Shown: positions 5,351-13,766 of the stretch, piece by piece
How positions within the stretch are numbered: position 1 is the stretch's first letter
Layout: every line of letters begins with the position of its first letter
From: an uncultured Planctomycetia bacterium
GTDB taxonomy: Bacteria > Omnitrophota > Gorgyraeia > Duberdicusellales > Duberdicusellaceae
DNA length: 37,966 nt
NCBI GenBank assembly: GCA_964604895.1
Contig: CAZSAI010000002.1
Location: forward strand, 1-37,966
Direction: 5' to 3'
Translations under genes and position numbers: made by a program
The notes under the pieces: model-generated
Told to the model about the DNA's origin: nothing
The model's input: the letters and a program-made list of their open reading frames with translations, nothing else
Databases searched by the model: none

Positions 5351-5857
5351 ATGAGGCAAGATATAATAGAGAAAATAAAGAAGGTTAAGTTGTTAATATT
5401 GGATGTGGATGGAGTTTTGACTGAAGGAAGTATCATTTATGATGATAAAGGGAGAGAATTAAAGGTTTTTAATGTTAAAGATGGCTTAGGGATATTCTTG
5501 CTTACCAAGATGGGTTTAGATGTAGTTATTTTAAGTGCTAAGAATTCTAAGGTTGTGAAAAGAAGAGCAAAGGATATGGGGATAAAAGACATTTTTTGGG
5601 GATATCCCAAAGAGGAGGTTCTAAGCAAGATACTTCAGAAATATAAAGTAACTAAAGAAGAAACCGCTTTCCTAGGTGATGACCTTATTGATGTAGAAGT
5701 GGCAAAAAGAGTAGGGGTATCTTTTGCTGTGGCCGATGCGGCAAAAGAGCTTAAAGAAGTGGTTGATTTGGTTACTAAGCATAGAGGAGGCAAGGGAGCA
5801 GTAAGAGAGGTTGCTGAGGTTATTATGGAAGCAAAGGGTTTAGGTAAATCGAGTTGA
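5351..5857 (+). CDS. kdsC: Kdo-8-phosphate phosphatase (HAD superfamily, YrbI type)
   Basis: LLILDVDGVLTEG, FNVKDGLGI and FLGDDLIDV motifs; 168 aa; closes the Kdo operon. Confidence 0.85.
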   Translation: MRQDIIEKIKKVKLLILDVDGVLTEGSIIYDDKGRELKVFNVKDGLGIFLLTKMGLDVVILSAKNSKVVKRRAKDMGIKDIFWGYPKEEVLSKILQKYKVTKEETAFLGDDLIDVEVAKRVGVSFAVADAAKELKEVVDLVTKHRGGKGAVREVAEVIMEAKGLGKSS

Positions 5858-5882
5858 CTTTTATAGAAATTTATGTTATCCT
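5854..5882 (+). promoter_or_regulatory. Sigma-70-like promoter candidate for the FecR/CHASE2 unit
   Basis: TTGACT (5854-5859), 17-nt spacer, TGt extended element, then TATCCT (5877-5882). The -35 overlaps the kdsC stop codon. A strong SD (GGGGAGGTGA) follows before the ATG at 5915. Confidence 0.4.
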
Positions 5883-11200: not shown

Positions 11201-13766
11201 TTACTTCTTGGTATTTTTAGGTTCCTTAGATTTTTATAAACTTTCCACCAAGGGAAAGCTTCGGATTCCTTCTTCTGATGAGAAGTATGAGAATAAGTGG
11301 TATATAGATAAAAGCTGTGCTTTCTATCTTAGGGGAAAGATAAAAGGAGAATATATCCTTACAAGCTCCTTAAACACCAATCGAGACAATAAGGAATTTA
11401 TTCGTTATATTGACCCCGATAAGTATTATCCTGTCTATGGAGACTCTTCAGATGTGGATTTCTCCTCTACCAATACTCAAGGAAAGTTCTTTATTAAGAT
11501 AGAGAAGGGAAAATCCTATGCTATGTGGGGAAATTATAGGACAGATTTTTCTGATACTCAGCTTGTAAGTTTTAATAGGTCTTTATACGGAGGAAAGCTA
11601 TATTATGAGTCTCCTTATAAAACAAGTTTTGGCAGGCCTCGAGATAAGCTTAATGTATTTGTAGCTACCATAAAACAGGCTGGTTCTCATGATAGGTTTA
11701 AAGCTACCGGAGGCAGCCTTTATTATCTGAGACATAAAAATATAGTTCCGGGTTCAGAAAAGGTATACATAGAGGTTCAGGATAGAATAACAAAACTCGG
11801 CTTATCCCAAGTAGAGGTTTCTCCCCTAGACTATGAGATTGATTATGAGCAGGGAAGACTCCTTCTTCTTAAGCCCCTTTCTTCCATAGCCTTTAGCTCC
11901 CATTTAATCTCAGAAGATGAACTTATAAATGGAGAGCCCAATTATTTAATAGTAGATTATGAATACGAGACTTTAGATAGAATCTATCAAGATGCTTATG
12001 GGGTAAGATTTTCTCACTGGATAAATAATAATTTGTCTATAGGCTCAACTCTGATTAAAGATTTAAAAGAAGGAAAGTCTCATACCCTTTATGGGATAGA
12101 CTTAGATTACATCTTTAACCAAGATAACTGGTTTTCTTTCGAATATGCTCGGAGTTTCTCTTCAGACTTAGATTATAATCTTTCTAATGATGGAGGCTTA
12201 ACTTTTTCCACTTATTCTGAAAGCAAGTATTCTCGTTCGGAGGCTTTTTCCTTTCGGGGTTTTTCTAAGTTTTTTGGAGGAAGGCTTAGACTTGAGCCTT
12301 ATTTTAAGAAGCTTTATCCCGGGTTTAGTAATACTGCCCTTCTTCATCTAAGTGGATTAGAAATATTTGGAATAGAGGGAGAATGGCTAATAAATAGGTA
12401 TAGCAGGTTAAAATTTATTCATAATGTAAATATAAACTTAGCTGGAGAATATGTGGGAGAGGATACCACCCTTACTGCTCGCAGGGTTCAAACTGATGAA
12501 GTCAGCTTAACCATTAGTCCTAGTAAGAGAGAAGCAATTGAGGCTGCTTATAGAATGGTAAGAAAGAGAAACCCCCTAAATCCTCAAAAGGATGAAGACC
12601 AAACCCAATACTTAGGCCTGAAATATACTCGTCGGATTAATGAGAAGCTGAGTACTTACTTAAGAGGTCAAGCTGTTGTGGAAGGAAAGTCTAACAATCA
12701 GGTGGGTATAGGCCTAAGCTATACTCCTTCTAAAGATACCTCTTATTCTTTGGAAGAAACCTTTGGCAACAAGGGTAATGCTACCCTAATCGGGGTAACT
12801 CAAAGGATAAACGAGAAGGCCACTTTAACTTCTAATATTGGAATATCTAGAGAAGGTCTACGTTCTTCCTTTGGCTCAACCACCAACTTAGATGATAACA
12901 CCCAGCTTAATTACAATAAGACTTATTCTAAGGATTTAGACTCAAATATTATAAGCCTAAGCAAAAGTATAGGTAAGGGTCTGAGCCTTGATTTTTCCTT
13001 TGAGCGTTCAGAATTTAATAATGAGGAGAAGAATAGTTATAGAAATGTTCTATCAGGTGGACTACGCTTTAGAAGGGAAGATTTCTTAGATTATCTTTTA
13101 AGGATAGAGTTTAGACAAGATAAAACTTCTTCTCAGAGGCTTAGCCAATACCTAATAAGAAGCTATTTAAACTACAACTTTAAAGAGTCTTTTTATTTGT
13201 ACCTTAAGGCTGACTTTTCTTTTGATACTGATAGGGATAACCCCTTAAGGAAAGAAAATTTTAGAGAATTCTCTATAGGCCTTGCTTATAGACCTTTGGA
13301 TTCAGATAAGTTGAATTGGCTTTTTAAATTTGCTCATCTTCATAACCGAAGCCCTGATTCTCAAGAGGATTTTCAAGACATAGAAAAAAGTACTTCTAAT
13401 GTTTTTAGCTTTGAATACTCTTATGATTTAACTAAGAAGATAGAATGGGTTCAAAAATTAGCCTTAAAACTTCAAGAGGAGAGAGTAGAAGGACTTCCTC
13501 TTCAGCATTCTAAAACTTATCTTTCTTTAAATAGATTTAATCTCAGACTAACCCCCAGCTGGCAGGTAGGTTTAGAGTATAGGATTTTGTTTCAAGATGA
13601 GACTAAGTCTACTAAGAGGGGGTTTTTATTAGAAATAGATAAGTATTTAACTGAAAATTTTCTCATAGGTTGTGGGTATAATTTTACAGACTTCTCCGAT
13701 GATTTGACGGATGAGGAGTCTTATAAATCAAAAGGTGTCTTCTTTAAGCTTAAAGGAATGTATTAA
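8265..13766 (+). CDS. Giant (1833 aa) multidomain outer-membrane / surface protein
   Basis: Signal peptide (MVIPRGKVKFIFLIFLLFFPSLFYA/QS). Domains in order:
- 3 FecR-like repeats.
- 11-Pro linker.
- Two Ig-like IPT/TIG-type modules (about 9015..9555).
- Seven YVTN-type propeller blades (YVYVAN.., YAYIPN.., YVYVSN.., LYVALA.., YVYVAN.., IYVTNE.., LYVANK..; about 9556..10450).
- DUF11-type conserved repeat domain (VNIGDIITYAITLNNNQTG..VDYLPPGFKY; about 10470..10840).
- SdrD-B-like module (GKVFVDSNNNGIQDKGERGLGGVKI..TDKNGKYHIPGL; about 10858..11150).
- About 870 aa rich in alternating hydrophobic/aromatic strands, ending ..GVFFKLKGMY (aromatic C-terminal residue, as in OMP beta-signals). Confidence 0.7.
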   Translation: MVIPRGKVKFIFLIFLLFFPSLFYAQSPKYLTRVYAYQGEFDIFTKDKTVTISSGQYLEIREAHPPLGPFYFTKEKRVPSLNKSKKVNKYRYFSYSPLVRSNPSRYITRVYCFEGEPLYVLAQGKKIVLKPGEYTEVREGKFPLSPQKFTKGLSKEEGEEKLEPKKVRKERVRKLEKGVEAFKKKRKKLPKYITKVYCYEGAVEVWGKKKRVLLFAGEFTQVVEGQEPTPPSSGESPPPPPPPPPPPEEELSITSVSPSQVGPGYSGTFTIEGTGFKSGANVFICGGDITISSVNVVSSGEISLNLTVSSSASSGLRDVTVTNPDGESYTLSSGLIISNKPTITNLAPNSLHQGRQNEDIVITGTNFQTGAVVSFSGTGITINSTTVNSSTQITVNISISYGASLGTRNVVVTNPDGGSFTLTGGFSITKGNYVYVANLFDDNATIIDTSDNTVVSTISLGDSPAHGEVTPDNSYAYIPNINTHTVSVISTATNTIVATINVGDSPEFLTVHPNGNYVYVSNTGDGTISVIDTSTNTVVNTVNTSNPADPTDQPMGLDVSGGKLYVALASDNQVKVFTISGSNLTLSATINLTGTNPYGLKVDPQGTYVYVANRNSDNVTVIRTSDNGIQTTVNVGDYPRCLAITSDSSTIYVTNEWANTITKITAGGLWPTSNLAVGNSPIGIGIEPNEDYLYVANKNDDTVSVVKLATYSVDSTLNAGDGAWAISIKDPGTSDSLKRANKKEVNIGDIITYAITLNNNQTGTIFGVSLVDYLPPGFKYIKGSSRLDGELIVPTYSGGRLIYSIGDINSGTTKVLKYQVRVSSGVSFGLYTNRAQASGILGGNPYNFPQASFTVKVVPDPIFDLGTIIGKVFVDSNNNGIQDKGERGLGGVKIVTEEGIVLTTDKNGKYHIPGLWPQDHLLKLDTRSLPQEYKLASRNPVLVHITEGLLSKVNFALVPRDKDKAIRENKFNLPLLKEDYFLVFLGSLDFYKLSTKGKLRIPSSDEKYENKWYIDKSCAFYLRGKIKGEYILTSSLNTNRDNKEFIRYIDPDKYYPVYGDSSDVDFSSTNTQGKFFIKIEKGKSYAMWGNYRTDFSDTQLVSFNRSLYGGKLYYESPYKTSFGRPRDKLNVFVATIKQAGSHDRFKATGGSLYYLRHKNIVPGSEKVYIEVQDRITKLGLSQVEVSPLDYEIDYEQGRLLLLKPLSSIAFSSHLISEDELINGEPNYLIVDYEYETLDRIYQDAYGVRFSHWINNNLSIGSTLIKDLKEGKSHTLYGIDLDYIFNQDNWFSFEYARSFSSDLDYNLSNDGGLTFSTYSESKYSRSEAFSFRGFSKFFGGRLRLEPYFKKLYPGFSNTALLHLSGLEIFGIEGEWLINRYSRLKFIHNVNINLAGEYVGEDTTLTARRVQTDEVSLTISPSKREAIEAAYRMVRKRNPLNPQKDEDQTQYLGLKYTRRINEKLSTYLRGQAVVEGKSNNQVGIGLSYTPSKDTSYSLEETFGNKGNATLIGVTQRINEKATLTSNIGISREGLRSSFGSTTNLDDNTQLNYNKTYSKDLDSNIISLSKSIGKGLSLDFSFERSEFNNEEKNSYRNVLSGGLRFRREDFLDYLLRIEFRQDKTSSQRLSQYLIRSYLNYNFKESFYLYLKADFSFDTDRDNPLRKENFREFSIGLAYRPLDSDKLNWLFKFAHLHNRSPDSQEDFQDIEKSTSNVFSFEYSYDLTKKIEWVQKLALKLQEERVEGLPLQHSKTYLSLNRFNLRLTPSWQVGLEYRILFQDETKSTKRGFLLEIDKYLTENFLIGCGYNFTDFSDDLTDEESYKSKGVFFKLKGMY
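8349..8966 (+). repeat. Three protein-level repeats of 44-45 aa (8349..8480, 8577..8711, 8835..8966) separated by Lys/Arg/Glu-rich linkers
   Basis: The three copies are:
- KYLTRVYAYQGEFDIFTKDKTVTISSGQYLEIREAHPPLGPFYF
- RYITRVYCFEGEPLYVLAQGKKIVLKPGEYTEVREGKFPLSPQKF
- KYITKVYCYEGAVEVWGKKKRVLLFAGEFTQVVEGQEPTPPSSG

Shared frame: [KR]Y[IL]T[RK]VY.[YF][EQ]G......K....L..G[EQ][YF]..V.EG..P. Confidence 0.8.
8973..9005 (+). repeat. Run of 11 consecutive proline codons (CCA CCA CCC x2, then CCA CCA CCT CCA CCT)
   Basis: Read directly from the sequence. It links the N-terminal repeats to the first Ig-like module of the giant protein. Confidence 0.95.

Follow-up and report, generated by a model that had tools for sequence, protein, structure and literature searches.

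CHASE2 is a widespread sensor domain whose input was still listed as unknown in 2023 (PMC10581220). Two kinds of described system join it to a FecR-type partner. In Sinorhizobium meliloti, NsrA is genetically required for signal perception by CyaK, according to the accounts in papers that cite the original work (Garnerone et al. 2018, J Bacteriol 200:e00019-18, cited in PMC13001267; PMC7529298). We checked the domains and the gene adjacency: NsrA combines a FecR domain, tetratricopeptide repeats (TPR) and a barrel, and its gene lies directly upstream of cyaK, which encodes CHASE2 and a cyclase. In Burkholderia contaminans and relatives, the BiofilmReg operon encodes a response regulator, a LysM-FecR protein, a CHASE2 kinase and a DUF4136 protein, and Pseudomonas aeruginosa PAO1 has a related LysM/FecR and CHASE2-kinase operon (PMC5192318). 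Here we analyse a locus in contig CAZSAI010000002.1 (assembly GCA_964604895.1) of an uncultured bacterium assigned to Omnitrophota; the window is the whole stretch of 37,966 nt. Three consecutive genes encode a FecR-like protein, a CHASE2-GGDEF protein and a giant outer-membrane (OM) protein. A reading of the letters alone (the original prediction) had proposed that they form an envelope-sensing module for cyclic di-GMP (c-di-GMP). After comparison with related sequences, we put at about even chances the view that a conserved two-gene envelope sensor stands beside a giant secreted OM protein which would carry the sensor's partner module.

5915..6379, plus strand: FecR-like gene, 154 aa; signal peptide aa 1-21 (read from the sequence), FecR core about aa 28-150
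6430..8112, plus strand: CHASE2-GGDEF gene, 560 aa, TTG start; one transmembrane (TM) helix, periplasmic CHASE2 aa 20-323 (nt 6487-7398), three TM helices, GGDEF aa 396-554 (nt 7615-8091)
8265..13766, plus strand: giant-protein gene, 1833 aa

The genes lie on the same strand, with 50 nt between the first two and 152 nt between the last two. These open reading frames (ORFs) and spacer lengths agree with those originally given.

Like the NsrA-CyaK pair, the locus combines an inner-membrane CHASE2 nucleotide cyclase with an OM barrel protein whose N-terminal part is of FecR type. The two genes are adjacent in both cases; that of the giant begins 152 nt downstream of the cyclase gene. NsrA-CyaK is an experimental precedent for an OM barrel that signals to a CHASE2 cyclase. 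The two systems differ in output, adenylate cyclase in CyaK and GGDEF in the window. They also differ in layout: NsrA has a full FecR part and TPR repeats and no separate FecR-like gene, while the window splits core and hairpin between two proteins. The giant was also considered as an NsrA homologue and rejected, there being no phmmer match between its barrel and NsrA and no Pfam FecR domain on it. A tblastn search of plasmids with an NsrA-like representative found nothing.

The BiofilmReg operon, which has been linked to biofilm behaviour, likewise places a periplasmic FecR-domain protein directly upstream of a CHASE2 sensor. Its output differs (histidine kinase and response regulator), its FecR protein bears a LysM domain and, unlike that of the window, retains the hairpin in cis, and the published operon has no giant OM protein. 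None of the window genes contains a LysM domain, a kinase domain or a response regulator. The FecA-FecR-FecI and PupB-PupR systems (PDB 6OVK) share the periplasmic FecR-type fold (Foldseek TMq, the query template-modelling score, 0.58) and a similar logic, in which an OM protein touches a FecR domain through its periplasmic N-terminal extension, and the FecR domain hands the signal on to the inner membrane. Unlike them, the window has no sigma/anti-sigma part, TonB-dependent transporter or STN domain; its FecR-like protein is free and soluble, and the signal would go to the CHASE2 cyclase. Dgc2 of Leptolyngbya boryana also has CHASE2 fused to GGDEF, with its input listed as unknown, but it has an extra PAS/PAC region and no FecR or giant partner is described for it (PMC10581220).

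The FecR-like/CHASE2-GGDEF pair and its neighbours

The small protein had been described as a secreted FecR-domain protein, and both parts of that description hold: Pfam FecR (PF04773) matches at 43.2 bits against a cutoff of 24 (5.7e-11), and there is a signal peptide. The match covers model positions 16 to 81-82 of 97, leaving the domain incomplete at its C-terminal end, and the protein ends 5 aa past the strand GVRGTKFAVEV. The small protein is a FecR core that stops right after the GTxFxVxV strand. A HMMER search with it gave 7505 hits at E<=0.001, and standalone proteins of 135-200 aa made up 98 of the 150 best representatives of the family. When C-termini were inspected in 40 of the standalone proteins, all 40 stopped a few residues after GTxFxVxV. 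A sequence search of the PDB with the FecR-like protein gave no match. The HMMER hits fall into four architectures:

Architecture 1: standalone proteins of ~155 aa
Architecture 2: two-partner secretion (TPS) giants ending in a FecR-like domain (P0195, P0222, P0256, probably P0242 and P0266)
Architecture 3: NsrA-like proteins with N-terminal FecR domains
Architecture 4: P0226, homologous to the window giant and with a true N-terminal FecR domain

The second protein is a CHASE2 sensor fused to GGDEF, as originally proposed (Pfam CHASE2, PF05226, 1.4e-51; Pfam GGDEF, 2e-46; TIGR00254, 2.6e-55); its TM segments were read from the sequence. Its GGDEF signature is GGEEM (aa 476-480; 7855-7869), and orthologues have GGEEI or GGDEM. 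The last Phe of the signature is replaced throughout the clade and the RxxD I-site is retained; R467 and D470 of this site (RSSD) and the ARYGG.E stretch are invariant in five orthologues. Judged from these residues, diguanylate cyclase activity is likely.

In order to assess conservation, the CHASE2 part was scanned against a collection with one genome per species and against a metagenome collection, which gave 50 related loci. A FecR-like gene (~155 aa) lies directly upstream on the same strand in 14 of 15 distinct close orthologous loci (42-54% identity), and a FecR-like neighbour is present in 16 of the 22 loci with a CHASE2-GGDEF relative. Beside distant CHASE2 proteins with other outputs, a FecR-like gene is found just downstream on the opposite strand in 17 of 24 cases. 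These counts show strong conservation of the FecR-like/CHASE2-GGDEF pair and bear out the recurrent FecR-CHASE2 adjacency that the original prediction had stated, which published work also reports (PMC5192318, PMC9239204). The sensor has its closest relatives in metagenome-assembled genomes of Omnitrophota or the Planctomycetes-Verrucomicrobia-Chlamydiae (PVC) group.

Beside most close orthologous pairs, a giant TPS exoprotein replaces the window giant. The exoprotein or its C-terminal end was found in loci L012, L013, L014, L016, L017, L018, L021, L024 and L026, as well as in L031, a more distant locus. A ShlB/POTRA transporter is encoded in L017, L018 and L019, and is the sole sign of TPS in the last of these. 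Neither a TPS domain nor a ShlB/POTRA partner was found in the window's three genes, though both occur in the orthologous loci. TPS systems and CHASE2 were not mentioned together in the literature searched.

Two further observations concern the orthologous loci. Two tandem FecR-like genes precede the CHASE2-GGDEF gene in L024 (1517-2602) and L025 (4287-5494). Just downstream of the orthologous CHASE2-GGDEF gene, three loci encode a ParA/MinD-T2SSE fusion ATPase of ~720-750 aa, in each case on the minus strand (L017 7096-9288, L018 11254-13407, L020 2658-4919); this may be a pilus or secretion ATPase tied to the same c-di-GMP module.

The hairpin module of the giant protein

The FecR-like protein stops where, in other proteins, a further element begins. 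In P0219, P0239 and NsrA-like proteins, a hairpin of ~45 aa with the motif T-x-V-x-C/V-x-E-G-x-V-x-V ... V-x-L-x-x-G-Q/E-x-T-x-V ... P directly follows the FecR core (the GVRGTxFxVxV strand) in the same chain. In P0122 and P0123, 3-4 tandem FecR domains are followed by 3-4 hairpins that align with repeats in the giant, e.g. TSVSCVEGEVYVASSSGGEVVVGKGQKTSVAEGEAPAAP. No Pfam model covers the hairpin module. The giant's N-terminal part has three ~47-aa repeats joined by Lys-rich linkers:

8265..8339, plus strand: signal peptide of the giant, aa 1-25, read from the sequence (ending ...LFYA, followed by QS)
8349..8489, plus strand: repeat R1, aa 29-75, from an internal-repeat hidden Markov model (HMM); combined hairpin HMM domain E=2.5e-18
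8577..8717, plus strand: repeat R2, aa 105-151; giant-free hairpin HMM domain at aa 108-150
8835..8972, plus strand: repeat R3, aa 191-236, then a poly-proline linker; giant-free hairpin HMM domain at aa 194-232

The giant-free HMM was built from nine cis hairpins that follow FecR cores (in P0122, P0123, P0219 and P0239) and was run against a database of 3557 sequences. It matched the giant with a full-sequence E=9.7e-9 (32.7 bits), exactly on R2 and R3, and its next match outside the training set was a TPS tail. Such tails were seen in eight loci, where a protein beside the pair ends in the conserved sequence KYRTTVIVFEGKVVV... (...KGKYRTTVIVFEGKVVVxPYDExG....VxLxxGQ...); seven of these proteins are TPS-like giants and the one in L012 is a small membrane protein. 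Comparison of the hairpin profile with the TPS tails by hhalign gave a probability of 92.8% (P=4e-7) with the giant included and 79.7% (P=1.5e-5) with the giant left out. When a 16-aa profile made from TPS tails alone was scored over 483,186 positions, R3 ranked 1st, R2 5th and R1 7th. Other TPS giants (P0195, P0222, P0256 and P0266) end in a fused hairpin and FecR-like domain. On the strength of these comparisons, we take the giant's repeats to be the hairpin piece that the free FecR-like protein is without.

This differs in part from what the original prediction had seen, namely three repeats with the strand-turn pattern of the FecR protein and hence one fold occurring both free and tethered. 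The three repeats exist and are FecR-associated, but their likeness to the N-terminal hairpin of the FecR-like protein is weak (hhalign P about 0.01), so that their treatment as copies of that hairpin was dropped for the post-FecR hairpin; and each is only one ~45-aa hairpin, not a whole FecR domain. A Pfam search of the repeats gave no FecR hit up to E=10, and only a weak match to Cupin_2.

We also appended the repeats to the FecR-like protein. With R3 attached, the Pfam FecR match extended to 97/97 and gained 2.5 bits, whereas R1, R2, shuffled R3 and reversed R3 gave no extension. An AlphaFold2 (AF2) model of the chimera with R3 had pLDDT 94.7 and pTM 0.89, with values of 89-97 over the hairpin, and R3 continued the FecR fold. 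By Foldseek, the model matched the periplasmic domains of PupR (6ovk_R) and BDI_1681 (4m0h/4m0n) with prob 1.00 and TMq 0.56-0.58 over 141-146 columns. The model speaks for compatibility and is not proof, because its alignment included cis-fused homologues.

Searches with a word index, using the giant's N-terminal 236 aa or the hairpin alignment, found nothing; this index requires shared 5-mers. Two observations on particular loci stand beside these results. In L021 and L031 a hairpin-tailed giant is encoded directly before CHASE2-GGDEF with no separate FecR-like gene, so that the adaptor may not be required there, or its gene may lie elsewhere. In L012 a 135-aa protein (11699-12106, minus strand), convergent to CHASE2-GGDEF, combines an N-terminal hydrophobic segment with the hairpin tail of the TPS giants at its end; from its sequence it would be a membrane-anchored hairpin carrier.

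The barrel family and the genomic setting

The rest of the giant consists of two parts:

9027..11069, plus strand: middle part with two Ig-like domains (aa 255-418), a YVTN beta-propeller (aa 429-720), DUF11 (aa 738-838) and SdrD_B (aa 871-935), by Pfam and NCBIfam
11085..13763, plus strand: C-terminal large OM beta-barrel, aa 941-1833 (~890 aa), with no Pfam family

The signal peptide, the surface-type domains and the predicted large OM barrel ending in Tyr support the original description of an 1833-aa outer-membrane or surface protein. The AF2 model of the barrel (pLDDT 80.6, pTM 0.76) has about 34-38 strands. Foldseek matched it to generic large barrels only, with TM about 0.2 (SlpA, LptD, MtrB, ushers and SprA), and a profile search of the PDB gave only marginal matches to chitoporin. 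Pfam found no autotransporter (type Va) family on the giant, and the ~34-38 modelled strands compare with 12 in that type.

At least 975 homologues make up the barrel family, and the C-terminal residue of its members is aromatic. Proteobacteria have the system in split form, with the barrel protein encoded just downstream of a giant whose C-terminal end is a DUF11-SdrD_B segment. The last ~200 aa of the split-system giants match aa 730-940 of the window giant, and the upstream giant was present in every case examined (L001/L002 and L068-L074). The barrel protein of the split system has an N-terminal extension with an OmpA peptidoglycan-binding domain. From these sequences, the family looks like an undescribed system of passenger and huge barrel that occurs in fused and split forms.

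The separation of barrel and DUF11/SdrD_B giant in proteobacteria recalls a transporter and its passenger, and the middle part consists of typical surface-protein domains. Both facts would suit an autotransporter-like export in which the hairpins sit at the giant's outer tip, out of reach of the periplasmic FecR-like protein, and attach to a ligand or surface outside the cell. We consider this quite improbable. The hairpin is otherwise found on FecR cores, which by family knowledge are periplasmic, or at the C-terminus of TPS proteins, the end retained in the periplasm; moreover, the N-terminal extension of the split-system barrel would be periplasmic, since it carries a peptidoglycan-binding OmpA domain.

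Signalling genes are found beside several members of the family. In Eleftheria terrae, one same-strand operon encodes a response regulator, a LysM-FecR protein, a CHASE2-PAS-kinase, an SdrD_B giant and an OmpA-barrel homologue, and so connects the barrel family with the BiofilmReg type. Next to the giant and barrel pair of L073 is a LysM-FecR gene, in Noviherbaspirillum (L072) a REC-GGDEF gene lies directly upstream of such a pair, and in S. meliloti T073 (L002) the barrel system is followed 1.6 kb downstream by a GGDEF gene. From these four loci, FecR/CHASE2/GGDEF signalling recurs beside the barrel system, though not always: three close barrel loci and several proteobacterial ones have no FecR or CHASE2 neighbour. 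P0226 (L061 8001-15197), with 2398 aa, is a homologue of the giant (barrel 6e-111) and has a true N-terminal FecR domain. No CHASE2 gene lies within 8 kb of it, and a gene for an extracytoplasmic function (ECF) sigma factor is found ~4.5 kb downstream.

The surroundings of the locus are devoted to envelope biogenesis, with genes for 3-deoxy-D-manno-octulosonic acid (Kdo), a SurA-like protein, BamA and an LpxC-FabZ fusion:

17055-18458, minus strand: SurA-like chaperone
30455-32770: BamA
34374-35690: LpxC-FabZ fusion (LpxC and a FabA-like domain)

The Kdo operon assigned upstream of the locus fits, with KdsB identified by Pfam and the remaining genes judged from the sequence. Two short metagenome contigs carry identical copies of the locus. 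Scans for promoters and terminators gave no signal above chance; the promoter scan returned 23 promoter-like sites against 24.4 +/- 4.7 in shuffled sequences. Of the two promoter-like sites originally proposed, the one at the end of the Kdo operon is present (5854-5882, 9 of 12 matches), but such sites occur at chance frequency, and in the 152-nt spacer the scan found none. In the region 8237-8267, a two-codon mini-ORF (ATG GTT TAA) directly adjoins a strong Shine-Dalgarno sequence (AAAGGAG). The ATG of the giant (8265) lies 21 nt from this AAAGGAG, an unusual spacing for initiation.

A proposed route from giant protein to c-di-GMP

We propose that the free FecR-like protein would dock on the hairpins in the periplasm and thereby complete its own fold, that the periplasmic CHASE2 domain would read the resulting complex, and that the cytoplasmic GGDEF domain would then alter the synthesis of c-di-GMP. 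The position of the hairpins has a bearing on what could be sensed. TpsA proteins leave the periplasm C-terminus last, and FhaB and CdiA keep their C-terminal part periplasmic until late. Proteins with a C-terminal barrel export their passenger from C to N, with the N-terminus last. The hairpin would thus be the trailing end in both kinds of carrier, the part that stays longest in the periplasm, and the sensor would therefore report a giant that is in transit, retained or lost.

Several results weigh against the view that the pair senses the giant. The original prediction had expected a conserved trio of gene types, and no segment of the giant was found in any of the 50 related CHASE2 loci. 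It had also expected FecR and CHASE2 genes beside homologues of the giant's C-terminal region; 10 of the 12 other barrel loci examined have no separate FecR or CHASE2 gene nearby, although among these ten, L061 has FecR fused to the barrel protein. The hairpin-bearing giant was found in this organism only, and if it is fully exported, its hairpins would be outside the cell. When an HMM was trained solely on the three repeats or solely on the TPS tails, it matched neither the other set nor the FecR-like proteins; the link between hairpin and tail is visible only with the cis-fused hairpins and profile-profile comparison. The gain in the Pfam extension is small and was obtained with R3 alone, the 11 cis-fused homologues in the alignment of the AF2 chimera bias its confidence, and with a GGEEM signature the cyclase activity is likely but not certain.

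These absences would be expected if the FecR-like/CHASE2-GGDEF pair alone were the unit and sensed an envelope or external cue, with the giant as a chance neighbour, or at most a downstream target, and the repeats as generic beta-hairpins. The 152-nt spacer that parts the giant from the pair, and the fact that the repeats match Cupin_2 weakly and Pfam FecR not at all, fit this explanation as well. It nevertheless has to account for the match of the giant-free hairpin HMM to the giant, for the fusion of the same module to FecR cores elsewhere and for its place at the end of TPS giants beside orthologous pairs. The Eleftheria operon, moreover, unites FecR, CHASE2 and the barrel family, and a gene for FecR or CHASE2 lies no more than a few kb away in the window, L068 and L073, 3 of the 13 barrel loci; at a few such genes per genome, we would guess a chance level of ~1%. 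An autonomous pair seems to us unlikely.

The flow of information could also be the reverse. In the Lap system, LapD and LapG relay the effect of c-di-GMP from inside to outside. The locus resembles it in having a giant surface protein with a small N-terminal periplasmic module, in its c-di-GMP control and in a weak similarity to the retention module that stays below family thresholds. In a Lap-like arrangement, CHASE2-GGDEF would sense something else, c-di-GMP would control the display or release of the giant, and the FecR-like protein and hairpins would form a periplasmic retention or anchor device. The c-di-GMP genes that recur by the giant and barrel system (REC-GGDEF in L072, GGDEF in L002) would suit this arrangement. 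So would a weak NCBIfam match of the LapA retention module to the N-terminal half of the FecR-like protein (E=0.0016; 18.6 bits, where the cutoff is 50), and the likeness of the AF2 chimera to 5ix9, a 'cell surface anchoring domain' (TMt, the target-normalised score, 0.73) from the related MpIBP. In L012, a secreted transglutaminase-like protein (8827-9303) is encoded between the TPS giant and the FecR-like gene; it was seen in this one locus only, matches Pfam DUF553 (1.2e-9) and weakly BTLCP/Peptidase_C93, and recalls LapG. Among the window ORFs examined, neither LapG nor LapD was seen, nor any LapD-like or PilZ-like c-di-GMP receptor, and the matches to the retention module are below threshold. 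FecR domains are classic signal transducers, and the FecR-CHASE2 link holds whether the output is GGDEF, adenylate cyclase or histidine kinase, which points to a place for FecR on the input side. We regard reverse flow as unlikely.

Returning to a sensor that reads the giant, we note that signalling from an OM partner of FecR type to CHASE2 is a concept already known from NsrA-CyaK and BiofilmReg. What appears to be new is the split of FecR core and hairpin between two proteins, the hairpin itself, which seems to be a repeated and portable tag carried by giant secreted proteins of two unrelated kinds, and the probable tie of the FecR/CHASE2 pair to TPS systems. The GGDEF output in this lineage is also new.

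A wider reading is possible, though tentative, and we lean against it as it stands. CHASE2 receptors in general would be sensors of protein state and not of small molecules. At least two unrelated export types (TpsA and the huge-barrel DUF11/SdrD_B system) would carry a trailing FecR-type hairpin or domain, a truncated FecR-like adaptor would complete its fold on it, and a giant that is stalled, tethered or shed would be converted into a c-di-GMP, cyclic AMP (cAMP) or kinase output.

The work on NsrA indicated that an OM FecR protein is needed for perception by a CHASE2 cyclase, and the mechanism is not shown in the accounts of it cited here. The present locus and its relatives point to a concrete contact, between a FecR core without its last hairpin and a hairpin on the trailing end of giant proteins. 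The comparison also brings to light a large barrel family without a Pfam model that is paired with DUF11/SdrD_B giants. If such a contact is made, c-di-GMP in Omnitrophota-like bacteria would be coupled to whether giant surface proteins are secreted or retained. If the wider reading of CHASE2 receptors as sensors of protein state is true, it would supply the long-sought input of CHASE2 and a new signalling role for split FecR domains.

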